Below are positions 1-59,188 of a DNA stretch of 64,000 nt, one piece after another. The DNA lies in the IMG/VR virus record IMGVR_UViG_3300021962_000041, positions 32,001-96,000 of that record; one strand, 5' to 3'. The stretch comes from a virus. A program made the position numbers and the translations under genes. How positions within the stretch are numbered: the first letter of the stretch is position 1; the number at the start of each line of letters is the position of its first letter. The notes under the pieces are model-generated. The model was given only the letters and a program-made list of their open reading frames with translations. It was not told the origin of the DNA and ran no database searches.

Positions 1-3000
1 CCACCTGCACCGACAACAGCACTAATAGATCCAGAATTACCAGTTGGAGATGTAATTGCAATAGAAACTGGACCACCATAGTAACCAGATCCATAATTAT
101 AATCTTTCCATTCAATACCAACAGAACATGATCCAAGTCCAGTGTAAGTATGTGGAATTGAAGAAATGCCACCATTAACAACAATTGTTGTTCCACTAGT
201 TCCAGCTAAAGATCTAAATATACCTCCTTCTGGTCCTGCCCCAGGATATGGGAAGATATTTGTTGTAACACCTACCGTTGCAGTTCCTCCAGAAACATAA
301 GTATGGTTTACTGTCGAAACACCTACATTCAAAACAATAGTAGTTCCAGCTGTACCAGCAATAACTCTATAAACATCAAAAGTTCCTTGGAGAGTATTTT
401 TACTACTTTGTGGGTAAGCATTACCTAAAGTTCCAATTCCAGCAGGATATGGGAACCTTGTTGTTGAATAACCTATTGGATTTCCTGGACAAGAAAGAAT
501 AATATTTGCTAATCTTACATATTTTCCTGCTTTTAACCCATGATTTCCATTAACTGTAATAGTTACTATTCCAGCATTTCTATCATAAACAAGTCCATTT
601 ACATTAAATGTTGAAATTCCAGTCCATGAATTACAAGAAAATCTTAATCCAGAAAGTCCAAGTGGATCACCAACTCTCAGATTATGGGTACCATTCAACA
701 CAAAAGTTGCAATTCCAGTTGCATTATCATAAGTTCCTGTAACTATTCCAAGAACTTTTGTTGGTGCAGAATATGTGCCAATAGCAACAATAGTTGATAT
801 TCCACCTGAAGCGTTTGTGACAATTCCAATTTGAGCTGGATAAAGAGGTGCAAATCCAAGACCTTGTGTAGATCCGATTGAAATTATGACTCCACCTCTA
901 GGAAGTTGATTTTGATTTACATCATCTGTGGAAATGATATTTTGTCCATTTGAAGAAGTAATACCGGAGAAAATAATACTACTAATCCCAATAGTACTAG
1001 AAAAATATGATGATGTATTATAACCAACTGCATATTGACTATAATCTTGAACTACATTATCATATGGTAATAATTCGCTATTTGGAACATATGATACTGG
1101 GGAATCAAATTGTTTAAAGGTATAAACATTATCTGGATTATTTGCCGTAGTTGGAGTCTGGAATATACCATTTAAGAATAAGAAAGCACTTCCAGTTTGT
1201 ATTCCTGTTGTATTAAGTCCAGAAACTGTTGTTGTATAAGTTCTTCCTACACCAGTTAAAGATGTTGAAATGTCATCAAATATTCTGTTTTTTGAGTAAT
1301 CTTTTCTGAGATAAACTCTTCCACCAAAAACTGCTCTAGGATATGGAACATTATTTGAATTTTTCTCAAGAGTTCCTTTTCCTGTCGGTGCAGATGTGAA
1401 GTAAATAATACTATTAGACCCTATATTGTAATTTCCACTATAAACTCTTACAGTACTACCAATTCCATGTGAAGTGCTAATAGATCCAAGATATGCTCTT
1501 GTAACTTCAATATTGGTATATGTGCCAAAACCAGTTACTTCAGCACCAGAAGTAGTTGCAAAACCAACATTAACAATTCTCATAATTTCATCATCAACTT
1601 TTATTGTTGAATCTGGAATAAAATCTCTAATGGTTCCAAGAGAGAGAATTGATGTAGAATCTCCAATCCCAGCTTGTAAGGTTGTGTTTACTGGAGTGAA
1701 TGCTAATGGATACTGAACTACCCCGTCAATTGTTATAAGAGTTTTTTCAAGTTTTGTGCTCATTTGAAGTTCATGAGCATTTCCAGATCCGAGACTTGTA
1801 AAAGTAACATAAATTCCAGCTAACGCATCAGATTGTCTAGTCGCTAATCTAAACCTATCTTCATCAATTCTAATTGCATACACTTCTGATGGTAAAATAT
1901 CAGTGCTAATTCCTGATTGAGTCAATGAAGTATTAATTCCAACCGCTGTAGATCCAATTCCTATAAAAGTTGATCCAGGGGTGTAAATTAATTTTTCGCC
2001 AGTGTTAAAGAAATGTCTTTCAATTGTAATTATTCCTGTACCTGGATTGAGGAAAGTTGTGCTAGATGGTGAAAACTTTTTACTAAAAATGGAAACACCA
2101 TCAGAAGTTAATTTAAATGTCGTTTTATTTGATCTTGAACCGTTGACTGCATTGTAAAAAAGTAATTCCATACTTTCTCTTAATTTACCATATTCTAGTG
2201 ATGGATAATTATTAGCAAAGTCACTTTCACTATAAATGACCTCATTGAAAGAACTGATTTGTAAAGTTGCAGTAATTCCAGGATCTCTATAGAATCTCAA
2301 TTCTGCTGGTGATGTTGAATAATCTACACCAAAAGTTCCAATACCAGATGTTGATCCAATTGAGACGAATGGATATTGTGTCATTACACAATTTCCATTA
2401 TTGTTTGCAACAAGAACTTGATGCAATGCACTTGTATTACCGTAAGATACTCTTACTAATGATTTTATAGTCGATACTTCAGTTTTATCAAATTTAAATA
2501 TTGAAGTGCTGGCGATAGAGACTTTTCTATAATCCGATTCAAATTTAAATGATCTCTCAGTGCCTTCAATTTGACCATTTAAAATAGATCTATAAGTTCC
2601 TACACCCACTGCTGTAGTACCAAAACCAACTACTCTACTTCTAACTACAACTTCTCCATTGTAAGTTGGATTTTCATAAGTTAAACTAAAAGTTCCAGCA
2701 TTTAAAGATGCCCTAAATGTACCTATTGGATTATATGAATTATTATCTACATTAATAGTATCAAAGAAATAATCAGATTGATAAGTATTTGTTCCATCAT
2801 GAGTTATATAAAGTTCAACAATATTTTTTATCTGCTCATTATTTTTAGCATAGACTTCGGCAGTCACATACATGGACTCTAATTTATTTGATTGAGCAGA
2901 AATAATCTCTGTTGTAATACCAATAGTTGCAGAATCCACTGATCCCGAAAGATTAATAAATCCAACATTAATTGTACCAATGCCAGTAGTATCAGCACCA

Positions 3001-6000
3001 AAATAAGTTTTTAAAATTTTGATATCATAATCAATATCGGTATAATTGGTTGGATAGAATCTAAGAGTTCTATCGCCAAATTCATTTACATATCCTTCAA
3101 TATCAACTGGTTGATCAGTTGTTGTAAAAATTGAAGATTTTTCAAATGTTATTAAATCAGTTGAACGCCCCTTAACAAGAATTACTTCTGTTGCCTGAAT
3201 GTTAGTTGATGCTGGATCAATGATTTGAATCAAAAATCTAGCAAACGAATCTTCAAAAATAGTTTCTATGTAAGGATTTAATGAAGATCTAGAATTTGAA
3301 AATTGTGGACTAATATCATCAATTTTAAGAACATTGTTTGTTCTACATTCAATGTATCCAGCTAATTTTCTATTTTTGAGTTTTATATCCTTAGTTCTAC
3401 CTTGGATAACATTATTATCAACACCCAAATCAAATCCATATATTGTATCTACACGATCTTCATTAATAAAATCAAATGTAGTTATTGACTCAACTGGTGT
3501 TACAGTTACTCCTGCTCCAGCAACATCTTTAACTTCAGTATCTGAGAAATTTTTTAATCCAACGGTGTGTAATAAAGAATTGACTGGGTTGATTAATTTT
3601 TCAAATTCTATTGGACTCTTTATTGTATATGATAAAGACTGATAATAATCATTATCTGGTAGAACTTGATAATCTTCGTTTAATTTGCCAATATTGTCCA
3701 ACCACCCAAGATCTTGCCTTGCAGAATAATTAATTTCAAAACGAGCATTATTATTAATAAAACTATCAACTCTTGCTCTAGTACCACTGAAAGTACCAAT
3801 AATTAAATCACCAATTTCTAATTCATATCTTCCAACAGATTTAATAAATGTTGTCCTATCCTCAGTAACAACTAAGTCAGTTTCAATATATTCTCCATTT
3901 GTAAAGACTAGCAACTTCTCACCAAGACTAAATTTTGTCGATCCAGTAATGACATCAAATCTAGGATAATCTTCATATCTAACAAAAGATGCAAATGTAG
4001 GGGTAGTAACTGCTATTCCAGCATTTGTTGTTATACCAGTTAGGTTAAATTCTAATTCTGCTGGGTTCGTATTTCTATATGCAGTGATATCATAAAATTT
4101 AAATTTGTTGTCAATTGCATTAAATCCATTTCCACTAGTTCCATATTTTTCAACACCTTCTACAAAAATCTTATCTCCAACATTTACAATATTTTGACTA
4201 TATCCAGCAATAGGTGTTTGAATAGTGCAAGTTACTATTCCTGTTGGTTGATCGTAGTCAACTTTACTAATAGTAAACCCATTAGTATTATTAACAGCAA
4301 ATAAAGTATGCTTAGAAGAATCCAAACCATTTGGAGCTTCAATAATATTAATTTTTCCTATACCAGAACCACCTACAGATGGTGTAATAATTCCATTATC
4401 TATTGCAATACCTTCAGAATTTGCCAGGATAAGATCTGGTGCTGATTGATAGTATCTACCTCCATATGTTATATCAATAGATTTTACAATATTTGTATCA
4501 AGTACAAAAAATGTTGATGGAACTAGTGCTTGTGGACGTAAAGTTACATCAGATGGATACTCAAATCCTGGATCAACAATTCTTACCTGATCAATTTTTC
4601 CTATCGTGTTAGATGTTGTATATACTTGAGCTCCTGTGCCATTTAGAGATTCAAATCCACTAATTACAGGTAGTTTCTTATAACTAACTCCACCCGATGT
4701 CAATGATAATCTACCAATCCCCCCACTAGCAGTTTTGGAAAATGTTGTATATGAACAACTCTCACATTGAGTACTTGAATATGAAGTTGATTCTGGAATT
4801 TTTGTTAAAGAAATTTTAAATTTATCATTAGTAACATCAAATACGGAATATCTACCATTATACAAACTATCAATATAACTTATCTTTGATGCATTGGTAA
4901 CATCTAAATCCGAAGTTGATATAAATCCAGATTTTTCTAATGCATAGAAAAATACCTGGGGCATTCCTGCATCATATCTGAGAGTTATTTTTGCATCGCT
5001 ACTAATTCCAATAGTTCCAACACCAGAAACTACAAAATTAGCAGTATTTCCAACGGATATAAATTCATTCTTAAATTGAGAATCATAATAGAATTTTAAA
5101 TTATATCCACTTAATGTAGAATCTTTTACATCAAATACAATATCATTATTTCTTACAATATTCAATTGTGGATTTATTAAAGATATTGTATGAGAAGTTC
5201 CACCAACAGAATTTATATTTACAATTGAAGGTGGATAAATTTTGTTATCGTATAAAGTTTCAGTAAGATTAAATGTATTTTCGTCTAAAACATAAACATA
5301 ATAATCACCAGTTTGTAATCCAGAAGCTACTGTGGTAACTGGTTTATAGTAAATTTTATCACCATTAGAAAATCCATGTCTTGCAATAGTAATACTATCC
5401 TTTGCAGTATTGATTCCCGATGAACTAAATGTGATCTGATTTACAAGTATTCTTTGACCTATCGTATCATACTTAAGTCTAATTGAACCAGATGTACCAA
5501 CACCAACAGATTGATTTGATTTAATATCTAAATTGATAATATCTCCATTTTTCAAACCATGGCTAGTTGATAAAGAAACCAAAGTTGTAACTCGATTTAC
5601 ATCAGATGTTACTTGAGTAAAGTCTGATCTAATTGCATAACCAAAATTATTTGACCCAAAACTAGCAAAAAATAGACCTTTAGTTGATGTTGTTAATCCT
5701 ACCTGGGTTACAATTCCAATATGATCATCAGATTGTTTTACAACGTAAAATGGTTCCCAATCTCCAGAACTTAAAATTGGAGTAGGACTATCAGCGGGAG
5801 TTTTTTGTACGAATAATGATGCTTCCCCTAGTGGTTTTTTAATTAAAACTTTTTGATTTGTTTGGAATGGGTGATTTGGGAGTCTAATACTTTGAATTGG
5901 AATTGAAGTAGTTCCTGTTAATTCGCCTATTCCAATAGTATAAGTAACAGATGTACTAAATCCAACTGAAGTACCAACACCTACAGATTCGGATGGATTG

Positions 6001-9000
6001 AAATAAACAATATCATTTACCTTTGATTCAAATTTTGGAGTTGATATTGGTAATGAGAAATAAGTTGGGACAAGTTCAACTTTTGCGGATAAAGTATGAG
6101 CATATCCAGATGTGTTACGAGTAACTCTTAAGATTTTTCGATCATCAAATTTATTGATAATCGTCATTGTCTCAGTTCCACTAACTTTTACAACATCACC
6201 AACATTCATATTTTCTGGAATACTAGAAACGTAAATATCAGTAATGACACCAACAATAGTTGTTGATGGAATTGCTTTATATAAAAATGTTTCTGATGTA
6301 GTAATTCCTACTTTATAATTTCTACCAAGAACATTCTTTAATGATGTGCTTATTCCACTTAAATATACGTTGTCAGATTGATTAAAACTATGTGTTGTTG
6401 AAATATAACCTTGAATTTCATTTTCACTTTTCCAGATTAAGATAACACCCTGATATTTCAATGTACTAGTTTCTACACTAGTTATTTCTCTTCCATTTAT
6501 CAAAGAAACTTGTGCCGAAGCTCCAGATCCGCCCGTATTATTATTATTAAAAATCGCAGCATCTCCAATTTTATAATTATCTCCAGCAGTAATAATATCT
6601 AATCTATCTACTGATCCTCTTAATACAGATTCTACAATTGATGTTTGGTTAATGAGTTCATTTGATTCAACAATAAAGTCACTACCAGAATATTGGTCAG
6701 ATGTATTGTATGGTAATGTATTTCTAATTATTTCAGTTCCTTTAAAATCATAATCTTGGTTAATAATATAAGTTTCGTCTAACAAATTAGACCTAAAAGA
6801 ATCACCAAGAAAATATGGAAATACTGGTTCAATTGTATTTGTTGTTGCATTTACTTTTAATGTCGTAAAGTATGCATATGTTCCTAATGGAAATTCTGGT
6901 GTCTTACAAAATCTTCCATTTGATTCATCTAGATCTCCAGAATCGTTATATGCATAATCTTCTATAAAAAATCCACTTGAAAAATCTGAAGGTCTATTAA
7001 TTATATTATTTGTATTCAATACATAACTAGAAGATAATAATTTTACAGGAGAATCATTCACTTGTGGATCTTCATAACCATATGGACCATAAATTGGATT
7101 GCCGTCCAACGCCCAACCAATTATAGGTGAGTGATCACTTCCATCATCATCAAAATATTGTGATCCTATATTTGTAGAATAACCAACAACACAATATTTT
7201 AAATTTGTTATAGATTTCTTTAAAATGTCTGCTCCATATCTGGCAAAAGTATTAACCCTAAGACTTCTAACAATAGGGTCTAGTGAAAGTTCAGATCCAG
7301 CTGATTTAACTGTTATACTAGTAGTATCTTGAACATAGTTCACACCAGGATTTATTACTATAACTTGTGAAATCGCATTGTTAACAATAACAGCTCTTAA
7401 TTTTGCACCAGTTCCTTCACCACTAACAACAAGATCTGGCGTAGAATAGTATTCTCTACCACCACTAAGGACTTGTACGGAATCAATTTTTCCATTTTTA
7501 ATATATGTCTTTAATTGTGCATCTTTACCTGTTTTTACTGTAATTAATGGTTTTTTATGTAAATTTAAAATACTAGAACCATAATTAGTTCCTGCCTGAT
7601 ATAAGTAAATATCATTTACAACCCCACGAATAATTGGAGTGGCAGTTATAATACCAGATATACCATCACGATATTTTACATTAACACTAATACTGATGGG
7701 TGGATATTCAAAAACTTGATATCCAGTACCTTTTGATTGAAACTTAATATAATTTTTTCGTTCATAATTTGAAGTTATTGTTCCACCGATTCCAGCATCA
7801 GCAAGTCTAAACTTATTATTAGTTATCTTAATAACTTGATATTGTTTAGAAGTAGATAATCCTGAAATTATAGTTGGAAGAGTTGAACCTACACCAACTG
7901 CTGCAGAATAAACAATTTTTTCACCATCATTGAACCCATGATTTACAAAGTTAATTGTATTATCACTAGTGGATATACCCGATGGAGAAACTCTTAATTT
8001 TCTATTTGAATATCCTTCTCCAGAGGATAAAACATCAATACGAGTTACAGTATTTGCAGATTCTAGAAGTCTGAATTTTTGGAATCCAATATTACTTGCT
8101 GTAGTAAATCCAATTGTGTTAATTCCAGAATTGAAATCCTTTTGGGTTCTATAAAGACGTATTGTTTTTGGACCTGTTGTTTGTGCATAATATACAGATC
8201 CATTTTCTAAGTATTCAGTCTTTATTCCAGTAGTATCATTAGATCCTCTAAATGTTCCGATACTTATTGGTGGACTACCATTTTTATCATAAACTAGTGC
8301 TTGACCAGATTTAATATTATGATCTTTCAAGAAACTTAAATCATCTAATGTTACATCCAATCCACCACCTTGTGTTGATGGTAAAGCACTAAAATCTAAT
8401 TCTCTATATCTTTTTGATGTTATTGGTTTTAAAATACACCCAGATCCATTTCCACCAGTTATTGTCACTGATACAGCATCATCAATATCAAAATCTTGAG
8501 GATCAACAAATACTTCTTTTACCGATCCAGTAACGACTGGTTGTACGAGTGCAGTAGTTCCAATTCCAGGAGAAGAAACCTCAATAAGTGGTGGGTTAAT
8601 AACATCATAATTTGAACCAGTATTTAAAATATTGACATCTTCTAAAGGTCCAAAATAAATTCTATCATTTGATTTATATGAATTTATTTCTACACCATTA
8701 ATTAATATACCAACAGTTTCAGCTTCCGTTTTTGTTCTAGTTGAACGTTGAATGTCTGGAAATAAAGGAAACTTTTTAAGACTTTTTTGTGGACCAATTT
8801 TTAAGTTATTTTGGAAAGATAATGTAAATGTATGGTTTCCAGTTCCCGTATCTAAAGTGCTAAATTCAATATAGTCGTCAGATGGGATGAAAGATCTTGA
8901 AGTATAAAGTTTGATTTTATTAGACTCTGCTAAAACTCTGACGTAATATAGACCTTCATCTAAACCAGGGATAGATTGATTTTCTGGTTTATAATAAACC

Positions 9001-10838
9001 TCATCACCAGTTATAAATGGAACACTAGTTTGGAATGATAATACAGAGTACTTTAATGTCGATGGATCATAATTTTGAACTCGATCACCATTTGCTTCTC
9101 CTAGTGAAATTGCAGATAAATTAGTTGTTATTGGGTATGATGGTAATGAATTTGAAGCAACATACATGTATTCATCATTTTCATTATATACATTTTGAAC
9201 GTCGGAAGTAATGACATTATTACCATATTGTATTTCCGCACCAGAACTTGTTGCTTTATTTAAATTTCTACGAATATCATACTCTTTAAGAGGATCTACA
9301 ATAAATCCAGATAGATTATTGAGAAGAATTTCTTTTGTTGACTTATTAATATTAGATACTATGGCGCCAGCATATTCAACAATTTGAGTATTTCTTCTCA
9401 AAATTTCAATTGTATCACCAACTTTGAGAGAAGATTTATCTATGTCAGAATAGAGTAAAAATGTACTACCAGAAATTCCTTTTACTTGATATCTAACCGA
9501 AGTATTGTATATCCATGTATTGGAGAAAATTTGCTTTTTAGTTTTAAATTGGTCAGGATTTTTTATTATTTCACCGAGATTTTTAACATAGATTACCTCT
9601 CCTTCATCGGTAAATGAAATATCTGATACTGGAACAAACTTTGATAGTACACCTGTTATTCTTACTTCTACTTTTTTTGTAAGGTCGCCATCTTCATAAC
9701 CATACATTACCTCATCAAATCTAATATCTTCTGCGGGTGATATTGCTGACGTTATACCACTACATCCTAAAAATTGATTAATTGTTTTATCAGTGTAAGT
9801 AATTGTATTTCCGCCACAAAATACCGTTCCTGATTTTGGAAACTCAACAGTAGAATCAACACTAATAACTTCTGATCCTACAGGAATATTTCCAATCACC
9901 CTTGTTTTTCCTGGAACAGTGAAAGTTCCTTCAATAAGAGCATTTTCACTAAATCCTACAAATAATGATAATTTGTAATATACTAGATTATTTTTTGATA
10001 TAATCTCAACCTCAGAAACAGATGCTTTTGTTGCAGGATCTGTTGATTTTCTAATGGTTTGTCCAACTAATTTTAATGGGTCTCCAGAAATTCTTTCTAC
10101 AAGAAGAGTTTCTCTTCTAATGTATTCTGCAGACGATGGTTTAATTAGATATTTTTCTAAATCTACTATTCTTGGAGTTACTCCATACAATATATTAAAA
10201 AGAATTCTAAAAGATTCTTTAGTTCCTTTAGATGCGTAAAAAGATCTAGCTTCCTTTATAAAATTACTAACATCTAAATTTTCAACAAAAGTTAATTCTT
10301 CTAGTCCAGGAGTAAGAGAATATTTTACTTTTTTATAAAACTCTTGTAAAAAGAGAGCACTGAGATTTTTTACATCAGAACCAGATTCGTGTGAAGATGC
10401 TTCAGATGTAGAAAAAACTAAATCATTTCTTTCTAATTCTTCGTAATAAGTTGTTATACCACTAAAACCACGTACACATCCAGTAAATGTATTGGTCGTG
10501 ATTCCAGAGTATGTAATAATTTCATCATCAATTTTTAATAGACCCCAATTTAATGGGAATCCTTTTGTGCTTTCTACAACGATTACATCAGATTCGCTTG
10601 TTACAGAACTTTCTAACGTTGTTTCACCACTTACTACTTCTGGAGTTAAATTATCCAGTTTTAAATATTGGTCTAAATTCTCTACAATATCAATTGATCC
10701 CCCAGGAATTTCCTGAGAAATGTAATATTGCTTTAAGAACTCAGCAGCTTTTGGAGATTCTGAAAGAATAAATTCTGGAAGTTGATTTTCTACAATTTGG
10801 TGAATTTTTACTCTCGTTTCAAATCCCGTTTTTATCAT
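1..10838 (-). CDS. gp7: Giant baseplate wedge initiator / virion structural protein (gp7-like), 3' end runs off the window (>3600 aa here)
   Basis: ATG at 10838, immediately after the gp6 stop, reads MIKTGFETRVKIHQIVENQLPEFILSESPKAAEFLKQYY. Gly/Ser/Thr/Val-rich beta-type sequence in the stretches I translated (not checked codon by codon). Gene order gp25-gp6-gp7 matches T4-like cyanophages. Probably absent from the ORF track because there is no stop in the window. Confidence 0.8.
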   Translation of the reverse strand, partial: MIKTGFETRVKIHQIVENQLPEFILSESPKAAEFLKQYYISQEIPGGSIDIVENLDQYLKLDNLTPEVVSGETTLESSVTSESDVIVVESTKGFPLNWGLLKIDDEIITYSGITTNTFTGCVRGFSGITTYYEELERNDLVFSTSEASSHESGSDVKNLSALFLQEFYKKVKYSLTPGLEELTFVENLDVSNFIKEARSFYASKGTKESFRILFNILYGVTPRIVDLEKYLIKPSSAEYIRRETLLVERISGDPLKLVGQTIRKSTDPATKASVSEVEIISKNNLVYYKLSLFVGFSENALIEGTFTVPGKTRVIGNIPVGSEVISVDSTVEFPKSGTVFCGGNTITYTDKTINQFLGCSGITSAISPAEDIRFDEVMYGYEDGDLTKKVEVRITGVLSKFVPVSDISFTDEGEVIYVKNLGEIIKNPDQFKTKKQIFSNTWIYNTSVRYQVKGISGSTFLLYSDIDKSSLKVGDTIEILRRNTQIVEYAGAIVSNINKSTKEILLNNLSGFIVDPLKEYDIRRNLNKATSSGAEIQYGNNVITSDVQNVYNENDEYMYVASNSLPSYPITTNLSAISLGEANGDRVQNYDPSTLKYSVLSFQTSVPFITGDEVYYKPENQSIPGLDEGLYYVRVLAESNKIKLYTSRSFIPSDDYIEFSTLDTGTGNHTFTLSFQNNLKIGPQKSLKKFPLFPDIQRSTRTKTEAETVGILINGVEINSYKSNDRIYFGPLEDVNILNTGSNYDVINPPLIEVSSPGIGTTALVQPVVTGSVKEVFVDPQDFDIDDAVSVTITGGNGSGCILKPITSKRYRELDFSALPSTQGGGLDVTLDDLSFLKDHNIKSGQALVYDKNGSPPISIGTFRGSNDTTGIKTEYLENGSVYYAQTTGPKTIRLYRTQKDFNSGINTIGFTTASNIGFQKFRLLESANTVTRIDVLSSGEGYSNRKLRVSPSGISTSDNTINFVNHGFNDGEKIVYSAAVGVGSTLPTIISGLSTSKQYQVIKITNNKFRLADAGIGGTITSNYERKNYIKFQSKGTGYQVFEYPPISISVNVKYRDGISGIITATPIIRGVVNDIYLYQAGTNYGSSILNLHKKPLITVKTGKDAQLKTYIKNGKIDSVQVLSGGREYYSTPDLVVSGEGTGAKLRAVIVNNAISQVIVINPGVNYVQDTTSITVKSAGSELSLDPIVRSLRVNTFARYGADILKKSITNLKYCVVGYSTNIGSQYFDDDGSDHSPIIGWALDGNPIYGPYGYEDPQVNDSPVKLLSSSYVLNTNNIINRPSDFSSGFFIEDYAYNDSGDLDESNGRFCKTPEFPLGTYAYFTTLKVNATTNTIEPVFPYFLGDSFRSNLLDETYIINQDYDFKGTEIIRNTLPYNTSDQYSGSDFIVESNELINQTSIVESVLRGSVDRLDIITAGDNYKIGDAAIFNNNNTGGSGASAQVSLINGREITSVETSTLKYQGVILIWKSENEIQGYISTTHSFNQSDNVYLSGISTSLKNVLGRNYKVGITTSETFLYKAIPSTTIVGVITDIYVSSIPENMNVGDVVKVSGTETMTIINKFDDRKILRVTRNTSGYAHTLSAKVELVPTYFSLPISTPKFESKVNDIVYFNPSESVGVGTSVGFSTSVTYTIGIGELTGTTSIPIQSIRLPNHPFQTNQKVLIKKPLGEASLFVQKTPADSPTPILSSGDWEPFYVVKQSDDHIGIVTQVGLTTSTKGLFFASFGSNNFGYAIRSDFTQVTSDVNRVTTLVSLSTSHGLKNGDIINLDIKSNQSVGVGTSGSIRLKYDTIGQRILVNQITFSSSGINTAKDSITIARHGFSNGDKIYYKPVTTVASGLQTGDYYVYVLDENTFNLTETLYDNKIYPPSIVNINSVGGTSHTISLINPQLNIVRNNDIVFDVKDSTLSGYNLKFYYDSQFKNEFISVGNTANFVVSGVGTIGISSDAKITLRYDAGMPQVFFYALEKSGFISTSDLDVTNASKISYIDSLYNGRYSVFDVTNDKFKISLTKIPESTSYSSTQCESCSYTTFSKTASGGIGRLSLTSGGVSYKKLPVISGFESLNGTGAQVYTTSNTIGKIDQVRIVDPGFEYPSDVTLRPQALVPSTFFVLDTNIVKSIDITYGGRYYQSAPDLILANSEGIAIDNGIITPSVGGSGIGKINIIEAPNGLDSSKHTLFAVNNTNGFTISKVDYDQPTGIVTCTIQTPIAGYSQNIVNVGDKIFVEGVEKYGTSGNGFNAIDNKFKFYDITAYRNTNPAELEFNLTGITTNAGIAVTTPTFASFVRYEDYPRFDVITGSTKFSLGEKLLVFTNGEYIETDLVVTEDRTTFIKSVGRYELEIGDLIIGTFSGTRARVDSFINNNARFEINYSARQDLGWLDNIGKLNEDYQVLPDNDYYQSLSYTIKSPIEFEKLINPVNSLLHTVGLKNFSDTEVKDVAGAGVTVTPVESITTFDFINEDRVDTIYGFDLGVDNNVIQGRTKDIKLKNRKLAGYIECRTNNVLKIDDISPQFSNSRSSLNPYIETIFEDSFARFLIQIIDPASTNIQATEVILVKGRSTDLITFEKSSIFTTTDQPVDIEGYVNEFGDRTLRFYPTNYTDIDYDIKILKTYFGADTTGIGTINVGFINLSGSVDSATIGITTEIISAQSNKLESMYVTAEVYAKNNEQIKNIVELYITHDGTNTYQSDYFFDTINVDNNSYNPIGTFRASLNAGTFSLTYENPTYNGEVVVRSRVVGFGTTAVGVGTYRSILNGQIEGTERSFKFESDYRKVSIASTSIFKFDKTEVSTIKSLVRVSYGNTSALHQVLVANNNGNCVMTQYPFVSIGSTSGIGTFGVDYSTSPAELRFYRDPGITATLQISSFNEVIYSESDFANNYPSLEYGKLRESMELLFYNAVNGSRSNKTTFKLTSDGVSIFSKKFSPSSTTFLNPGTGIITIERHFFNTGEKLIYTPGSTFIGIGSTAVGINTSLTQSGISTDILPSEVYAIRIDEDRFRLATRQSDALAGIYVTFTSLGSGNAHELQMSTKLEKTLITIDGVVQYPLAFTPVNTTLQAGIGDSTSILSLGTIRDFIPDSTIKVDDEIMRIVNVGFATTSGAEVTGFGTYTNIEVTRAYLGSISTSHGIGSTVRVYSGNYNIGSNSIIYFTSAPTGKGTLEKNSNNVPYPRAVFGGRVYLRKDYSKNRIFDDISTSLTGVGRTYTTTVSGLNTTGIQTGSAFLFLNGIFQTPTTANNPDNVYTFKQFDSPVSYVPNSELLPYDNVVQDYSQYAVGYNTSSYFSSTIGISSIIFSGITSSNGQNIISTDDVNQNQLPRGGVIISIGSTQGLGFAPLYPAQIGIVTNASGGISTIVAIGTYSAPTKVLGIVTGTYDNATGIATFVLNGTHNLRVGDPLGLSGLRFSCNSWTGISTFNVNGLVYDRNAGIVTITVNGNHGLKAGKYVRLANIILSCPGNPIGYSTTRFPYPAGIGTLGNAYPQSSKNTLQGTFDVYRVIAGTAGTTIVLNVGVSTVNHTYVSGGTATVGVTTNIFPYPGAGPEGGIFRSLAGTSGTTIVVNGGISSIPHTYTGLGSCSVGIEWKDYNYGSGYYGGPVSIAITSPTGNSGSISAVVGAG

Positions 10839-14656: not shown

Positions 14657-15386
14657 GACCAACACGAATGCGAGGATCGCACCAGATTTCGAAACCTGCT
14701 TCTTTTGCATCAAGGCAGAAAGAAACGTCTTCGCCACACATATCCTGAACTTCGCCACTTTCAAAGACTTGCATCTTAGGAGCAAACCAGGGATACTTCA
14801 TCTCAGGATGCTCAAAGACACCTTTCTTAATCAGAAGCCAACCAAATCCAGTGTAGTCAACAGTAAATGGTTTGCGACGCTTTGAGATACTTTCAGTCGT
14901 TTCATGATTCATTACACCACCATTACTACGGAAATCATCTTCTTCTAACCAGTGAGCAACAGATGTGGTCACACCATCTTCCGTTGCATACCAACCAGCA
15001 GCAATATCCTTTTCCATCAGAACAAGTTGCCAGAACTTATCAGTATTGAAAACAATATCACTATCAATCCAAAGTTGCCAATCATAAGGCAGTTTTCCAT
15101 CCCAGGGAACTTGATCTGGTCCACGGAGAACGTTTGCGCCAAGACACTTACAACGTGCAAAATTAACCATCGAGGAATAATCTTGCGAAATTTGGATGCT
15201 AGCGCCAGCTTGTACCAAGTCAAAGCACATCTGCACGAAGCTTTTTAAGTAAGTGTAAGAAACACCACGCCCAGGGAGACAAAACACAATGGTCTTACCT
15301 CTTACCAATTCTCTGGCTTTATCATAGTCCCACTCTTGTTCTGTTGTCTGCGGGGCTTTTGCTTTTACAGTAAATCCTTTAGCCAT
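14634..15386 (-). CDS. GT-A-fold glycosyltransferase-like protein
   Basis: LWIDSDIVF (DxD), GFGWLLIK, GEDVSFC, RVGHEK motifs. Confidence 0.7.
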   Translation of the reverse strand: MAKGFTVKAKAPQTTEQEWDYDKARELVRGKTIVFCLPGRGVSYTYLKSFVQMCFDLVQAGASIQISQDYSSMVNFARCKCLGANVLRGPDQVPWDGKLPYDWQLWIDSDIVFNTDKFWQLVLMEKDIAAGWYATEDGVTTSVAHWLEEDDFRSNGGVMNHETTESISKRRKPFTVDYTGFGWLLIKKGVFEHPEMKYPWFAPKMQVFESGEVQDMCGEDVSFCLDAKEAGFEIWCDPRIRVGHEKTRII

Positions 15387-15405
15387 AATAGAATGCGTTT
15401 ACTTC

Positions 15406-15437
15406 AGTATCATACAATATTATGTAGTGGTTGTCAA
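15406..15437 (-). promoter_or_regulatory. sigma70-type promoter
   Basis: TTGACA-N17-TATGAT on the minus strand, upstream of 15386. Confidence 0.7.
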
Positions 15438-15607
15438 TTACTCCGTTCTGTAATGATAACCTCATTACCTTCTAGGGCAATCCGAACTTCCGTGTCTTCG
15501 TACCACTCTAGTTCATTGATTATCTCTTCAGGTATTGTTATAAAATACTCCCCCGTTATTGGATCGACTTGTACGGGCACAAATTTATCTCCGGAATTTT
15601 TTCTCAT
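15434..15607 (-). CDS. AbrB/MazE/SpoVT-like small DNA-binding protein
   Basis: YFITIPEEIINELEW..DTEV.I.LEGNEVII pattern; 57 aa from ATG 15607. Confidence 0.7.
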   Translation of the reverse strand: MRKNSGDKFVPVQVDPITGEYFITIPEEIINELEWYEDTEVRIALEGNEVIITERSN

Positions 15608-15782
15608 ACTATGAAACTTATTTTTAATCTTATATATGGGGAAAAAATTTTTAAGTCGGGTGGAACATTTTGATCGCTTTCGTAACACTTTGTAGGTTAG
15701 GGGGACCCATCGATTTTATACGGGGGCGCCCCGCCCGAACCAACGGGACGGGGGCGCTGCTGCTGCACGAACGAAGGGGGCG

Positions 15783-16921
15783 TCACCCCTGCTGCGTGAC
15801 CCACCCGCTCACGGGGCAGCCCTTATAATCGCCAGCGTGTGCCTGGCGGAAAGTCTCAGTCCAAATGGTAGCGGGGTGACCCACGGGGGCGGTGATGGCG
15901 TTAAAGTTGCTGCCGTCGTTGCGGTAGGCGACCCACTCAAGGGAGCGGGTGGAGAGGCGGGAAGCGGGGGAGAGGCGCATCGGGTCAGGTCGTTTGATCT
16001 GAAAGAATTCTACAGGCAACCCCCCACCGAATCGGCAGGGGGTGTGCGGTTGTCAGAGTGTCACCAGATCACGGGGTTGCCCTGAAGATCGGTTACATTG
16101 CCCTGCTGATCATCTTGGGCAATTGATTCAAGAATCCGCAGGATTTGCTCTCCGTTGTTACCTTGCTTCAGGAGAGAGATTGCCAGGGATTGAGTCATGA
16201 TGAAAAAGGAAAGTGTACGGGTGGCAGTCTTTAAAGGCGCTGCCGTTCCTGTTAATCAGTTCAGACGCATTCCAGAAAAGAAAGGAATTGTGCCATAATC
16301 TTTAGAGCAGAAGAACCACTGAAAGTTCTTCTGAAAGATACCTTCACCAGGGCAACCATGCTCAGAAAGAATAGCATTCAAACGGGATTTGGTAGTGTTA
16401 GAACGCCACCCACCATCGAACAATTCGATCCAGGTTTCACCAATTCGGGCGATCAGATTGCCGTGCAGGTAAACATCAGAAACGTTGGAGCAGTTGATAA
16501 CTTCGGTGTTTGCCATCTTGAAATCTTTGCCAGCGGTGATGGCAGCATTCATCAGACGTTCGATCTTACGCATGGGAGGGGGGTGTCGTATGAACTGAAA
16601 GAAGTCTACAGGGTCAGTCCCTGATGATGTCGGCGGTGAGTGCCAGTGCGTCAGCTGTCACATGGCGGAGCGGTTGCAGGGGGTGCCAGAATATTGTCAC
16701 CAGTGCCACCGCTAGGATTGCTTTCCCTAAGGTCACAGAATGACGGGGGCAAAGGGTTTGTGAAGGATGCCATAATCTTCGATGGATTGATCTAAGATAG
16801 CATCGATTGCTTCATTGATACGCTTCCAGGAATTAATCGGAGCGACAACATCCTGACAGGTTTTCTTCCAGGATCCGTTAACTTTAACCACAACAGACTT
16901 GGTGAGAGTTTGTTTGATCAT
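15783..16921 (-). other. Small early genes: 15783-15980, 16061-16198, 16256-16573, 16733-16921 (hypothetical)
   Basis: Short minus-strand ORFs placed directly downstream of palindrome/-10 promoter elements. Confidence 0.7.
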
Positions 16922-17063
16922 GGTTTGTGAAGTAATGGGGTGAGGGGTGCCCTTAGTTCCCCCGTTGTGGCAGTTGTGCCACTTCCTAGAGCAAGTGAAG
17001 GATCTTCCCCAGGGACCTGTCCGATGGCGGGTGGTTTCTCTGGGAGGGTTCGCTTCTGAAGTA

Positions 17064-17121
17064 ATTATAGGGGGTCAGGGAGGCAGATCAACGGGGTGTG
17101 TGCCACCTCTTCAACTGGCAC
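17064..17121 (-). promoter_or_regulatory. Early promoter element (type copy): palindrome plus -10
   Basis: GTGCCA-N10-TGGCAC at 17100-17121, 30 bp from TATAAT (17064-17069). Confidence 0.8.
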
Positions 17122-18028
17122 ACTGAAAGCGTCCGTTGTTGAAGTTAGCATTAGAAAAGACCTCACGATTGACCAGTTTGAACATACCAAACTCATTGGT
17201 CATCACATAACCTTCGGCGTCGATTCTGTTGCCGTAAAGGTATGCTGCAGGACCATCATTGCGGCAGAGGTACAAACAATCATCTTTGATTGACTTCACC
17301 AATGCCCACAAACGCAGCAGGTTAGCATCACAATCAAAGTCATCAGGGTTGATCTCTTCACCAGCACGAATGCAGGCATTAATCTGCTGTTTGATCTTTG
17401 CCGCTTCCTTATCAGTTACGAACTCACAGGCAGTAGACATTTGACGGGCAAAGTCGCACACTTCCTTAACATCATCAAAGCAGCAGGGATTGCCACTCCG
17501 ACTCCAAGGATCGTGCTGAATGTATGCTTGGGGTTTGACAAATTTCACATAAGGTGTATCCGTGATGATAAAGTTCATCGGATACGCTACAGCATCACGA
17601 AGATCATTCTCTGCAATGTAGTAAGTATGAGGAGCAACAATAATCTTCTCAGAAACTACCTCAGGGAACTGATAAGTGAGCGTGTTAGGAGTATACTCAG
17701 TATCGCCACCAAAACCAATAAAATCGCCTTGAAAGATACCGTTTGAATGAGGCAACCAATCAAAACAAGCGTGCAGAATGTTTGCAACCTGCCCTGCATG
17801 ATTTTGATCGATTTCATCATGAGAATGATTGATCTTGATTTTAACTTTGTTGAACACAGATTTGGTGCCAACGAAGAACTTACCATTGGCGGGATTGATA
17901 CCCCAGACGATGGCAGGTGCGCCGTCAATCTTAACACTCATGGTGCCAGGATTCACGAACCAATCCAGAACAGAAAGATCACCCGTCAGGATGGTATCTT
18001 CAGGGTGTTCGAGGTGTGTGTTTTTCAT
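17111..18028 (-). CDS. ATP-dependent ligase-like nucleotidyltransferase (DUF6267-like)
   Basis: HLEHPED N-term; VKIDGAP (motif I KxDG), FQGDFIG, EGYV, FKLVNR motifs. Confidence 0.7.
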   Translation of the reverse strand: MKNTHLEHPEDTILTGDLSVLDWFVNPGTMSVKIDGAPAIVWGINPANGKFFVGTKSVFNKVKIKINHSHDEIDQNHAGQVANILHACFDWLPHSNGIFQGDFIGFGGDTEYTPNTLTYQFPEVVSEKIIVAPHTYYIAENDLRDAVAYPMNFIITDTPYVKFVKPQAYIQHDPWSRSGNPCCFDDVKEVCDFARQMSTACEFVTDKEAAKIKQQINACIRAGEEINPDDFDCDANLLRLWALVKSIKDDCLYLCRNDGPAAYLYGNRIDAEGYVMTNEFGMFKLVNREVFSNANFNNGRFQCAS

Positions 18029-18034
18029 GCTGTT

Positions 18035-18093
18035 AGTATGGCACGGAATCAGGCGGAGCACAAGGGGGTGTGTGCCACCTTGTCAACTGTCAC
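18035..18093 (-). promoter_or_regulatory. Early promoter element
   Basis: GTGCCA-N10-TGTCAC 18072-18093, 31 bp from CATACT. Confidence 0.75.
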
Positions 18094-20071
18094 AGGAAGG
18101 TGGAAGGATCCCCGTAGTCTCCGACAATGTTACCGAAGCAGTCACGGATCTCAGCGTATCCGAACTCCTCAGAGAGGTCCAGGCAAATCAGCATGGCACG
18201 ATCCAGATCGGTCGTGGTCTCATTCTGCTCAGGGGCAGAGGGGCAAAGGATTTCGTAAGTCATGCAGACATTATAGGCACGGGGTCGGACGCTTTGGGGG
18301 CAGCAGTGGACACTCCGCCAACTGGCACAGCGAAGCGGCCGCCCTGGGTATAATTAATCCTCCAGAAGATGCGGGTAGTATTCTTCTACCTCTGCGATCA
18401 ATTCTTTATCCGAATAGTTATCATAACTCTCACTCATAGAATCATACAAACACGCCATCATGGTTTTGATGTCCATATCATCCAGGATTTGCTGAATGAG
18501 TTGATCTTGGAGTTCAGAACGATTCATGTTAGTTGTTGTTGAAAAGTGCGGTGATCTTGTCTGCGATAGAGTAGTAATCCTCTACAGGATCCTGTTCTTC
18601 ATCTTCACAAAATTGAACATTGTTAGAAACAAGATTGAAGATCAAATCCCATTCAGATTGTGTAAAGAACTCTTTGACTGCGTGCTTACCAACAGCGTCA
18701 TTCATGATGGTTTCAGTAATCGTAGTTGGAGTTGATGTAAGATTCTACATTGAACTTCTCATCTTTCTCCCATTCTTCTTTATACTCAATCACGTCGAAG
18801 ATCTCACCAGGAGCATCAGCAATCTCAGACCAGAGTTCATCAAACATGGTGTGTCTCTCAGGAACAAAGTTAGTATGGCACGAACTGGGGGGCATCGCAA
18901 CCCCCCTTGTACCAGTTCAGAGATCGTCCATCATCTCATTGATCTCAATCCCATCAATCTTAGGATCATCCCAACGGCAACCATCTGGGGTCTCTTTGCT
19001 ACCACAATCACGAAGCAATTGCACTAATTCTTGATAGTTACTGCAGGTCTTGGCAGCATCATACAAACCCTCATCATTTCCGATCCAGAGTGCAACATTC
19101 CACGTTTCCCAGTTTGCCCAACCGTTGTAAGTTGCAGTGCTCATCGGTGTCCTTCAGGTGAACGAATGTAATGTAGAACGGATCAGGGAGAATGTCTAGG
19201 GGGTGTGTGCCAGTTCTCAGATTGGCACAAGCGAATATTGATTAATCATAATGTCACGTACATTTTCACGATCGAAGCTATCGCCAGCAAAATCTGCACC
19301 CGAATTAATATACTGAATGGTGGCTTCGATGATCATAACATCCGTGGCACCCATGTCGTAGATACCACCAGGACCATAGAAAGATCTCACGTACTGAACG
19401 AAATTCATTACACAAACTCCGCAAGGTAGTAATCAAGGGGCAGCTCAAGTTCTGCTGCTTTCTGTTCCCATTCATCCCATTCTTCAGGGGACGCATCATT
19501 CAGGAAATCTTCCCGAGTATACTCAAATGCAGGACCACACATAATCAGATCACCGAAACGTTGACTTCTTTGATGTTCAAACCACAGAGTTGGTTGTATA
19601 CTCGCTTGCTGATAATGTCGCAAGCATTCTTGAGTTTTGAACGCTCATACCAAATTGTACACAAACCATCGTAGGTTTCGACACGAATTCGAATGTCTTT
19701 CACGAAGCAATTCCCGACGACGAATGTAGAATATCCCATCAGGTGGGCAATTGCAACTAGTCTTGTGACAGTTCAAAAAGTGGCACAAGATCGGTTGAAT
19801 TCCGATGATCTTCGTGCTAATAGGGAATTATATCATTATCAATAAGATCTTGTTATTGAGAATCAATAAGGACTAGTAATTGAGAATAAGATCCAATGTT
19901 CGAACTGTCACATCAGAAGATATCGCTGTAATCTTTGATGCTAACATTGACATCCTCATCACCTTCTAGGTGTAGGAGTTCACGCCAATTAATACCTTCT
20001 AGTTCTAGATCTTCATAACACATAAGATCTAGTGTAACTCGTACCATGCGCTTTGCGTGTGTGGTAGGCAT
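18090..20071 (-). other. Small, mostly acidic early genes: 18090-18263, 18354-18527, 18529-18705, 18713-18847, 18917-19144, 19217-19408, 19408-19542, 19545-~19703, 19913-20071
   Basis: Tightly packed minus-strand ORFs (several translated manually), interleaved with promoter elements. Confidence 0.7.
19170..19228 (-). promoter_or_regulatory. Early promoter element
   Basis: GTGCCA-N10-TGGCAC 19207-19228, 31 bp from TACATT. Confidence 0.75.
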
Positions 20072-20101
20072 AAGAATCTCGTGTATGTGTACTAGATTAT
20101 A

Positions 20102-20251
20102 TCATGCATAATGACGATATGCAAGCGTTTCGTAATCTTGCCCATCTCGTGCATAATCCTCGTCGAGATCTGCATCTTGTGCATAATACTCGTCGAGATC
20201 GTATGTGTAATCTGATGCGTATGTATAGTCGAGATCGTAGTCGTCGTACAT
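20102..20251 (-). CDS. Asp/Tyr-rich acidic peptide (49 aa)
   Basis: MYDDYDLDYTYASDYTYDLDEYYAQDADLDEDYARDGQDYETLAYRHYA; lies downstream of TTGCAA-N18-TACAAT. Confidence 0.6.
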   Translation of the reverse strand: MYDDYDLDYTYASDYTYDLDEYYAQDADLDEDYARDGQDYETLAYRHYA

Positions 20252-20410
20252 AATGCTCGTCGAGATTTGTGTGATGCTTATGTATTGTAGCATAAAGCTC
20301 GACGAGATTGCAAGCCCTTATGATGCACACGTCTCGTCGAGATTCATGATAGTATATATACACTCTTGTCGAGATTTATGTGCTTCTCGTAACATAAGTC
20401 TCGTCGAGAT
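20159..20410. repeat. Array of 8 palindromic repeats, core CTCGWCGAGAT
   Basis: Copies start at 20159, 20189, 20225 (degenerate), 20256, 20298, 20333, 20365 (one mismatch) and 20400. Confidence 0.9.
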
Positions 20411-20437
20411 TCTAGCACGAACTTATAAGAATGTCAA
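20409..20437 (-). promoter_or_regulatory. Near-consensus sigma70 promoter reading into the repeat array
   Basis: TTGACA-N17-TAGAAT. Confidence 0.75.
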
Positions 20438-20467
20438 GGTCTGGGAATTTCTGGGCGTCCCCGGGGG

Positions 20468-20496
20468 TTGACAAACTGCGCGTCTTATGATACGCT
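20468..20496 (+). promoter_or_regulatory. Divergent sigma70 promoter
   Basis: TTGACA-N17-TACGCT with extended TG. Confidence 0.65.
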
Positions 20497-20676
20497 GGCA
20501 AAGGTTGCAATAAGAACCAGTATTTTCTTACTATTCTCAATAAAACCTTTTATTTATTCTCATTTACAAAACGCTTATTGAGAATCACCAAATATTTAAT
20601 CTCACAATAACAATCATAACTATCTAAAATAACATATAAGATATATACAATAATTAAAGTGTTATCTAAAATATAA

Positions 20677-21486
20677 ATGTCCCAAGGAATCATCTACCTC
20701 ATCATCAACAAACAAAACGGACACAAATACGTTGGACAAACCACCCAAGGAATGAATAAAAGGTGGCAACAACATATACAAGAAGCATTGCGAATGAGTG
20801 ATAAACCACTACATCGTGCTATGCGTAAGTATGGCAATCACAACTTTATGATTAAAGAAATAGATGAGTGTGATGAAAGTTTATTAGATGAAAAAGAACA
20901 ATATTGGATAGAACAATATAATACCTTTGAAAGTGCAGAAGGTTATAATGCAACAAGTGGTGGAAGTCGTCCAATCTTTAGTAATGAAACAAAACAAAAA
21001 TTAAGTGAAATAGCATCTAATAGAGAAAGAACAGAAGAAGAAGTTGCTAATATAAAAACTGCTTTAACTGAAAAAGCAAAAGAAAGAAATTGGGGATTCT
21101 TAACTGATGAGAACAGAGGTAATGGTAAACACTCTGGCATCAAGATACAAGGACTGAATATCGAAACAGGTGAAATAAGAGAATGGGATAATGCCCGTGA
21201 TGCTGCAGAAGAAGTTGCTGGTGATCGTAATAAGAACAGCAATATCTTATTAAGTGCTAAGAAAGGATATAAGTGTTATGGTTATAGATGGAAACTACTT
21301 GAACAAAAGAGTAAGAAAAAAGCAGTCAAAGCAGTTAATAAAATAACATGGCAGGAACATCATTTTGAAAGTATTGCCGATGCGATTAGAAAAGTTGGTG
21401 GTAATAGCAGGGGGACTGGACTAATTAAATCATTAAGAAGTAATGGACGTTATACTTGGAAAGGATTTATGTGGTTTTATATTTAA
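20677..21486 (+). CDS. GIY-YIG homing endonuclease (Seg-like) with C-terminal NUMOD-type DNA-binding repeats
   Basis: GIIYLI..NGHKYVGQT..RWQQH, EQYWI, GYN motifs; C-terminal FESIADA..YTWKGFMW. Confidence 0.9.
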   Translation: MSQGIIYLIINKQNGHKYVGQTTQGMNKRWQQHIQEALRMSDKPLHRAMRKYGNHNFMIKEIDECDESLLDEKEQYWIEQYNTFESAEGYNATSGGSRPIFSNETKQKLSEIASNRERTEEEVANIKTALTEKAKERNWGFLTDENRGNGKHSGIKIQGLNIETGEIREWDNARDAAEEVAGDRNKNSNILLSAKKGYKCYGYRWKLLEQKSKKKAVKAVNKITWQEHHFESIADAIRKVGGNSRGTGLIKSLRSNGRYTWKGFMWFYI

Positions 21487-21489
21487 ATT

Positions 21490-21514
21490 AAAAAACCTCC
21501 TAAAAAGGAGGTTC
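21490..21514 (-). terminator. Intrinsic terminator between convergent genes
   Basis: AACCTCC-TAAAAA-GGAGGTT hairpin followed by a T-run on the minus strand. Confidence 0.75.
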
Positions 21515-21520
21515 TGATGA

Positions 21521-50128: not shown

Positions 50129-50185
50129 ATTATAGCAGAAAGGGGTCCCCGAAGGAACCCCCTGTACCAGTTATGAAAGTGTCCT
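50129..50185 (-). promoter_or_regulatory. Early promoter element with stem-loop, opening the accessory region
   Basis: GTACCA-N10-TGTCCT 50164-50185, 29 bp from TATAAT; GGGGTCC..GGAACCCC hairpin. Confidence 0.72.
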
Positions 50186-53178: not shown

Positions 53179-53201
53179 CTTAAAATGTTTTTAGTTATTT
53201 A

Positions 53202-58962: not shown

Positions 58963-59035
58963 TACCCGTGGTCGGATTCGAACCGACACTGGAAGGATTT
59001 TAAGTCCTCTGTCTCTGCCGTTGGACTACACGGGC
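58963..59035 (-). tRNA. trnL: tRNA-Leu(UAA), short variable loop
   Basis: GCCCGTG/CACGGGT acceptor stem, anticodon arm GAGGA-CTTAAAA-TCCTT, TTCGAAT T-loop; no encoded CCA. Confidence 0.9.
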
Positions 59036-59040
59036 TTAGG

Positions 59041-59113
59041 TGCTCCTTGCGTGGATCGAACACGCCTCAGGCGAATTATGAGTTCGCTGCATTCACCAGA
59101 TTGCTAAAGGAGC
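59041..59113 (-). tRNA. tRNA with CAU anticodon (Ile2-type or Met)
   Basis: GCTCCTT/AAGGAGC acceptor, GCGAA-CTCATAA-TTCGC anticodon arm. Confidence 0.88.
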
Positions 59114-59115
59114 AA

Positions 59116-59188
59116 TAGGAGTGCTGGGAATTGAACCCAGACTACCCCGTTATAAGCAGGGCGCTCTGACCGATTAAGCTACACTCCC
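59116..59188 (-). tRNA. trnI: tRNA-Ile(UAU)
   Basis: GGGAGTG/CACTCCT acceptor, CCCTG-CTTATAA-CGGGG anticodon arm, TTCAATT T-loop. Confidence 0.88.

Follow-up and report, generated by a model that had tools for sequence, protein, structure and literature searches.

The question raised by this locus is what purpose is served by eight copies of a short palindrome that are lined up beside a divergent promoter and an AT-rich tract in a viral genome. A first-pass annotation of the sequence regarded the region as a nucleoprotein platform, either an origin, a partition or packaging site, or a master early switch, and gave a transcribed repeat-spacer RNA as a less likely reading. The early switch has gained support, because the copies are clustered, conserved and located on core promoter elements; for the array itself, an origin or partition role has not. 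Our preferred reading, to which we assign a probability of roughly 0.55, is that the array consists of operators through which a putative regulator, most likely a repressor, would control immediate-early promoters.

The window, i.e., the whole stretch of 64,000 nucleotides that was analyzed, corresponds to bases 32001-96000 of a 114,868-bp IMG/VR record with a CheckV completeness of 53%. Because baseplate gp6 and gp25 domains are present in the window and its DUF6267 matches 465 cyanophage records, the virus has been assigned to the T4-like cyanomyoviruses (Kyanoviridae). The best-matching Synechococcus phages are S-SRM01, S-SM2, and S-SKS1, and the nearest named relative is S-SRM01. Nearly all genes of the window are carried by the minus strand, and among the plus-strand ORFs scanned against PHROGs, a family match was obtained only for a GIY-YIG gene; the proposal that the array locus is the only divergent transcription point of the window is plausible. 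Downstream of the array, at about 18.3-20.1 kb, there is a string of small minus-strand genes belonging to PHROG families that lack an assigned function, which is a typical early-region layout. The G+C content is 42-49% at 15000-20000, where the small genes lie, compared with 29-36% in adjacent structural genes. Several other features of the window are recorded here: an ORF of more than 3,612 aa at 3-10838 (-), which runs off the window end and lies directly downstream of the gp6-like and gp25-like baseplate genes, two more giant ORFs of 1,796 and 997 aa at 50185-58592, and a cluster of three tRNA genes at 58963-59188 (-) for Leu-TAA, Met-CAT, and Ile-TAT.

When the whole window was searched for CTCGWCGAGAT with up to one mismatch, 12 matches were found against 0.85 expected, and none of 100 shuffled sequences reached 12; ten of the 12 matches fall within 20159-20410. 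The eight copies and their start-to-start distances of 30, 36, 31, 42, 35, 32, and 35 bp were reproduced, with the 9-bp core CTCGWCGAG exact in six copies and degenerate in two (Table 1). Further exact copies of this core were absent from the remainder of the 114,868-bp record. On the minus strand, which is the coding strand, the copies read ATCTCGACGAG, and the sole T-centered one is site 4. The copies had also been thought to extend into a 23-bp palindrome. CATAA is indeed found at the left of five copies, but a logo of 563 sites from relatives has no conserved flank beyond ATCTCGWCGAGAT, and therefore the extended palindrome is local, not family-wide.

Four promoters of the module are predicted to be of sigma70 type (host type). 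Three of them had been listed in the first-pass annotation and are present as described: P1, the start point of which is covered by site 1, the acidic-gene promoter, and the divergent promoter P_div. The fourth, the p52 promoter, was absent from that list. P1 is conserved in seven of 14 aligned modules, with the window counted among the 14. When transcription starts are inferred from the promoter hexamers, the site centers are located at about -2 relative to P1, at -127, -92, -60, -25, and +17 relative to the acidic-gene promoter, and at -74 and -104 relative to the p52 promoter. TTATGCACA at 20178-20186 (-), 2 nt after site 7, agrees at every position with the E. coli-type DnaA-box consensus TTATNCACA, and an 8/9 match follows site 8; since the consensus occurs 17 times in the genome, the match at 20178-20186 may be due to chance.

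Table 1. Positions of the predicted features of the array locus in the window.
Feature	Position	Strand	Description
p52	19913..20071	-	52 aa, acidic; phrog_12516, function not assigned
p52 promoter, TTGCAT-17-TATAAT	20096..20124	-	TG-extended; overlaps last codons and stop of acidic gene
Small acidic gene	20102..20251	-	49 aa, Asp/Tyr-rich; starts MYDDYDLDY, ends LAYRHYA
Site 8	20159..20169	-	Exact; within acidic gene, codes DLDE; about -74 from p52 promoter start
Site 7	20189..20199	-	Exact; within acidic gene, codes DLDE
Site 6	20225..20235	-	Degenerate, 2 mismatches; within acidic gene, codes DLD
Site 5	20256..20266	-	Exact; in 5' leader, ends 4 nt before acidic-gene ATG, about +17
Acidic-gene promoter, TTGCAA-18-TACAAT	20284..20313	-	Palindrome within spacer
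Site 4	20298..20308	-	Exact, T-centered on sense strand; in -35/-10 spacer of acidic-gene promoter
Site 3	20333..20343	-	Exact; about -60 from acidic-gene promoter start
Site 2	20365..20375	-	1 mismatch, plus strand CTTGTCGAG; kept in relatives
Site 1	20400..20410	-	Exact; abuts P1 -10; center about -2 from inferred P1 start
Promoter P1, TTGACA-17-TAGAAT	20409..20437	-	11/12 consensus positions, TG-extended
P_div, TTGACA-17-TACGCT	20468..20496	+	Spacer conserved; preceded by G/C tract 20455-20467
Second motif family, ATTCTCAATAA/TTATTGAGAAT arms	20533..20587		Within AT-rich tract, downstream of P_div
Endonuclease-gene leader	20590..20676	+	85% A+T; inserted cassette, outside conserved module
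GIY-YIG homing endonuclease gene	20677..21486	+	The divergent gene

Translation of the ORFs agreed with the statement that three of the sites lie inside a peptide ORF. Because both termini of the encoded acidic protein are conserved and its length variation in relatives (45-65 aa) is in frame, this ORF is a real gene; 84 distinct intact versions were found in 97 loci among the motif matches listed. Its neighbor p52 has relatives encoded by at least 496 viral contigs, as detected with a p52 protein profile. Both proteins are strongly acidic, and neither a DNA-binding fold nor a DNA-binding family was found for either of them. The AF2 model of the acidic protein is of low confidence (pLDDT 61), and that of p52 (pLDDT 83) has almost no regular secondary structure, gives no fold match above Z 2.5, and is accompanied by no hit of the p52 family in Pfam, a PDB profile search or Atlas. 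p52 was considered as the binder of the palindromes, since its N-terminus resembles a ribbon-helix-helix or AbrB strand, and was rejected because of the near-unstructured model, the best fold score of Z 2.5 and the lack of a family.

The codons used for the sites within the acidic gene are informative. In the loci retrieved with p52, 56 of the 80 Leu-Asp-Glu/Asp triplets of the acidic gene are written CTC GAC GAG, and the commoner codons in the adjacent p52 are CTA for Leu, GAT for Asp, and GAA for Glu. At identical residues, the codon identity amounts to 0.71 for the acidic gene and 0.56 for p52. As judged from this codon choice, the in-gene sites are under selection at the DNA level as well as under protein constraint. 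DLDE is retained with other codons in the lineages L168, L189, and P-SSM2, where CTAG half-site variants are present, and lineages without the DNA motif likewise retain DLDE or DLEE in other codons; therefore, the protein motif is selected in its own right too. On the opposite strand, a basic ORF rich in Arg and His (pI about 10) is located at 20104-20253 (+) and stays open in 63 of the 94 loci. It probably results as a by-product from the codons used on the sense strand, each palindrome being read as RRD.

That the motif should occur in related phages was proposed as a check, and the array is conserved in hundreds of relatives. When IMG/VR was scanned for pairs of motif copies separated by 15-40 nt, at least 120 contigs were obtained. 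The bias inherent in a motif search was removed by retrieving loci through the p52 protein profile alone. Of the 56 distinct loci retrieved in this way and having enough flank, all 56 contain the acidic gene together with one or more exact sites, and 53 contain at least two sites. The same 56 loci carry 232 exact sites in 29 kb of upstream region and 10 in 130 kb elsewhere, i.e., the site density upstream is about 100 times that of the flanks. The module conserved among relatives consists of P_div, the G/C tract, palindromes over sigma70-type promoters, the acidic gene, a promoter buried in its end, and p52. The acidic-gene promoter has a palindrome within its spacer of 17-19 bp in 112 of 125 distinct modules, and a site ending 1-5 nt before the acidic-gene ATG is likewise present in 112; a TTGCRN-N16-18-TAnnnT promoter over the acidic-gene stop was found in 103 of the 125. 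A divergent TTGACW-17-TAnnnT promoter is present in 94 of the 119 modules with enough flank, 56 of which have the TACGCT version. Additional sites lie upstream at intervals of about 32-42 bp. In an alignment of 14 genomes, the palindromes, the promoter hexamers and the P_div block with its spacer are the best-conserved non-coding columns. The array exists as described, is non-random, and is deeply conserved.

Homologous regions are found in the isolates S-SRM01, S-T4, and P-SSM2, which share with the window the P_div block, a palindrome in a TTGACA/TATAAT-type spacer and the acidic gene. S-SRM01 differs from the window in lacking the endonuclease gene and having two further arrays. P-SSM2 has mostly CTAG half-site variants and no recognizable p52, and its array lies upstream of and inside PSSM2_098, which is its acidic gene. 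The annotation of the region in these three phages consists of hypothetical-protein calls only (QPX48137.1, PSSM2_098), and QPX48137.1 of S-SRM01 covers p52 and the end of the acidic gene. A literature search with motif strings, cyanophage early promoters and origins, and P-SSM2 expression found no published description of the array.

The complete genomes of relatives carry two to three arrays each, at different early promoters; there are two in S-T4 and three, within 5.5 kb of small early genes, in S-SRM01. Among the matches listed, 31 secondary arrays were found in the motif-found loci. Many secondary arrays flank another type of promoter, in which a 24-bp dyad, TGTGNCAS-N8-STGNCACA, lies about 28-30 nt upstream of the -10 element. 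The fetched loci contain 344 distinct promoter-like sites with this dyad. Palindromes accompany 38 of them at preferred positions, which are immediately upstream or downstream of the dyad, close to the -10, and close to the start. Arrays at several early promoters behave like a regulon-wide operator, which argues against a single origin-specific set of iterons. The window itself contains four copies of the dyad, at 17099, 18071, 19764, and 30392, and TATAAT is found about 28-29 nt downstream of those at 17099 and 30392 (-). A 62-aa gene follows the secondary palindrome arrays in many relatives and was considered as an autoregulator; this was rejected, because its homolog in the window, at 43447-43632 (-), is inside an operon without an array.

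From these observations, we infer that a protein binds the sites and that the effect of binding would be repressive. One sequence-specific and probably dimeric DNA-binding protein would recognize the repeated core ATCTCGWCGAGAT at sites that overlie the immediate-early promoters presumed to drive a conserved cassette of two genes, those for the acidic protein and p52. Since sites are located on the P1 start, in the promoter spacer and at about +17, their occupancy should block RNA polymerase and thereby shut the promoters off, probably in a cooperative manner along the array. The array would thus supply the early shut-off that T4 reaches by other means. The spacers of the acidic-gene promoter are 17-19 bp and mostly 17 bp long, and therefore a MerR-like mode of action is not indicated. 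As to the binder, clustering of all flank ORFs of 94 loci brought out no further family that accompanies the module constantly, and the protein could be of host origin. In a scan of genome contigs for the motif, the matches listed were mostly from high-GC bacteria and archaea and included no cyanobacterium; judging from their titles, we read the bacterial and archaeal matches as coding noise.

Several points stand against the operator reading. Neither of the two adjacent acidic products, for which DNA-binding folds and families were sought and not found, qualifies as the binder. The spacings between sites peak across modules at about 21, 30-33, 39-43, and 60-67 bp, with a mean phase near 0 at a period of 10.5 bp, but this preference for one helical phase is weak (R = 0.36, with similar values at periods of 9.5-11), shared ancestry is a confounding factor, and three of the seven spacings in the window break the phase. 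The central base is A on the sense strand in 74% of non-coding sites, a bias that a symmetric dimer does not require. CTAG half-site variants are abundant in some lineages, including P-SSM2.

Operator arrays are known from the early promoters of other phages, such as OR and OL of lambda, which are bound by CI and Cro, and the Arc and Mnt sites of P22; the tandem met boxes of MetJ are a non-phage parallel. As in these systems, short dyad sites are repeated here over the spacer and start point of strong sigma70-type promoters, and cooperative repression of the first-expressed genes would be possible. Unlike lambda and P22, however, the window has eight sites instead of two or three, these reach into a protein-coding gene, the array has no adjacent repressor gene, and the phage is a strictly lytic one of T4 type. 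Another comparison is offered by PeSLs, the promoter-early stem-loop cassettes of T4-type phages, each of which consists of a single promoter and a terminator-like hairpin and has been proposed as a driver of recombination; the papers describing them leave cyanophages uncovered (PMC2839356, PMC4122927). Both are repeated regulatory elements with early promoters among small variable genes of plastic regions, but the module of the window is made of arrays of a 13-bp palindrome without a stable hairpin.

On the divergent side of the locus, the AT-rich tract at 20520-20676 was confirmed, with 80% A+T compared with 62% for the window. It contains a second motif family, TCAATAA-N7-TTATTGA with ATTCTCAATAA/TTATTGAGAAT arms, which forms one cluster there and another at 19835-19889 and occurs also at 23370; two tandem 24-bp units of it stand directly before TATAAT at 19832-19827 (-). 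The motif is rare elsewhere in the genome and is found also in S-SRM01 and many loci. Homologs of the GIY-YIG endonuclease, with identities of 25-74%, occupy this position with unchanged orientation in about 38 of 122 motif-found loci (among the matches listed) and in 21 of 58 p52-found loci. In the near-identical relative L164, the DUF6171 neighbor of which is 97% identical, the endonuclease gene is absent, and the comparison places the insertion in an AT-rich block between an upstream terminator at 21492-21515 and the ATTCTCAATAA arms; because of this insertion point, 20590-20676 is regarded as the endonuclease leader. Relatives free of the endonuclease retain P_div, the G/C tract, the ATTCTCAATAA/TTATTGAGAAT arms, and the AT-rich block, and in some lineages DnaA-box-like TTTTCCACA repeats replace the ATTCTCAATAA arms. 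The endonuclease is probably expressed from P_div, and its recurrence at this intergenic position in about one-third of relatives suggests long-term site-specific homing beside a conserved control region. When the 44-nt P_div block was compared with phage isolates by BLAST, only noise was obtained. Downstream of P_div, L043, L101, L103, L038, and others have variable tandem repeats; the repeated unit measures about 22-30 bp and includes CATTTATAAG. The complement of this unit includes TATAAAT, which resembles a T4 late promoter and points toward the array, and the window has one degenerate copy of the unit at about 20505-20530.

The main alternative, although unlikely, is that the locus is a replication origin, with the palindromes serving as initiator iterons, or with the region working like oriF or oriG of T4, in which case P_div would prime an R-loop and the palindromes would gate it. 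The region is gene-poor and highly conserved, P_div and the AT-rich block downstream of it are kept even in relatives without the endonuclease gene, and it is where the window has ATTCTCAATAA arms that some relatives carry the DnaA-box-like repeats. In T4, oriF(uvsY) and oriG(34) consist of a promoter and a downstream unwinding element, oriE has 12-nt iterons to which no role has been assigned, and active origins lie close to where transcription diverges (Kreuzer and Brister, 2010, PMC3016281). The order of promoter and unwinding element is matched here by geometry alone, in that P_div is directed into an AT-rich tract that melts easily, transcription diverges locally at this locus, and a cluster of short repeats close by recalls oriE; but P_div is of sigma70 type and not MotA-dependent, and in place of 12-nt direct repeats there are palindromes, which lie on other promoters. 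An iteron origin would have its initiator gene in cis and would be the only one in the replicon, but the neighbors encode proteins of 49 and 52 aa, no initiator-like gene was found nearby, and several arrays per genome lie at different early promoters. Iteron sites would be direct repeats at regular spacing beside an AT-rich unwinding region; the copies here are in one orientation, but their spacing is irregular (30-42 bp), they sit on promoter cores, and more than 110 bp, including P_div, separate them from the AT-rich tract. No cluster of DnaA boxes was found in the window, and the cumulative GC skew, proposed as a check, has no inflection or turning point at the array. The origin or partition role that had been suggested is consequently not upheld for the array itself. 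Since P_div and the AT-rich block are kept without the endonuclease, a T4-type origin keeps some probability for the wider region, and the two functions may be combined. Under this version, which we rate as quite improbable, the module of 0.6-0.9 kb would be both an early control center and a replication origin, and one palindrome-binding protein would couple promoter shut-off to origin firing; P_div would fire into the AT-rich tract and prime DNA synthesis as at oriF and oriG, and the acidic product, the gene for which contains three of its own operators, could exert feedback on the palindrome-binder. For parS or pac sites, which would call for a partner gene (ParB or terminase recognition), the presence of several arrays per genome instead of a single locus is again relevant, and no ParB-like family was found among the neighboring ORFs scanned. 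Packaging in T4-type phages is of the sequence-independent headful type.

The remaining explanations take the repeats to be something other than binding sites for a regulator. They might be a by-product of coding and duplication, the motif being the codons for DLDE and the upstream copies being what is left of gene starts that were duplicated. In favor of this, DLDE is needed by the acidic gene, a real one, and is written in other codons by motif-less lineages, and nnTTATG follows three upstream copies as it does at the true start; we nevertheless regard this as very unlikely, because non-coding copies are fixed in position across more than 100 distinct modules, mutually out of frame and on promoter elements, arrays of the motif occur also far from any acidic gene, and the codon choice is far from local usage. 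It is also highly improbable that the repeats are RNA-level signals, acting in the transcript from P1 and the acidic-gene promoter as hairpins that pair A-centered with T-centered copies or as sites for an RNA-binding protein or RNase. All eight copies are downstream of the P1 start in a single orientation, the bias of the central base toward A is on the sense strand, and the 331-nt transcript folds somewhat better than shuffled sequences (z = -2.3), with site 3 paired to site 4; a single repeat, however, gives a stem of only 3-4 bp, paired centers do not covary (43 A/T plus T/A combinations observed against about 46 expected under independence), and in relatives without P1 the upstream and promoter-spacer sites would be untranscribed. 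The repeat-spacer RNA can be rejected, since the "spacers" are conserved between phages and are partly protein-coding, and the site centers lack compensatory pairing. CRISPR repeats are at least about 24 nt long with uniform spacers of variable, foreign sequence, and here the repeats are 11-13 nt and the "spacers" 19-31 nt. Finally, the array could be the target or landing pad of the neighboring endonuclease, given that so conserved a sequence suits homing and that homologs recur there in about one-third of loci. This is extremely unlikely, because the two-thirds of modules without the endonuclease gene retain their arrays, the insertion point is about 200-270 bp from the array in the AT-rich block beside the upstream terminator, and arrays also occur at other places in genomes, with no such gene.

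T4-like cyanophages rank with the most abundant viruses of oceans and lakes. To our knowledge, they lack MotA and AsiA, the proteins of the early-to-middle switch of T4, and we know of no T4-like cyanophage in which replication origins have been mapped. The retention of putative operators within a coding gene is a clear case of dual constraint on DNA and protein. The module is also one of few candidate loci for the start of replication in T4-like cyanophages. If the operator reading is correct, the conserved array together with two universal tiny genes would provide a testable handle on the timing of the first genes expressed by these phages.
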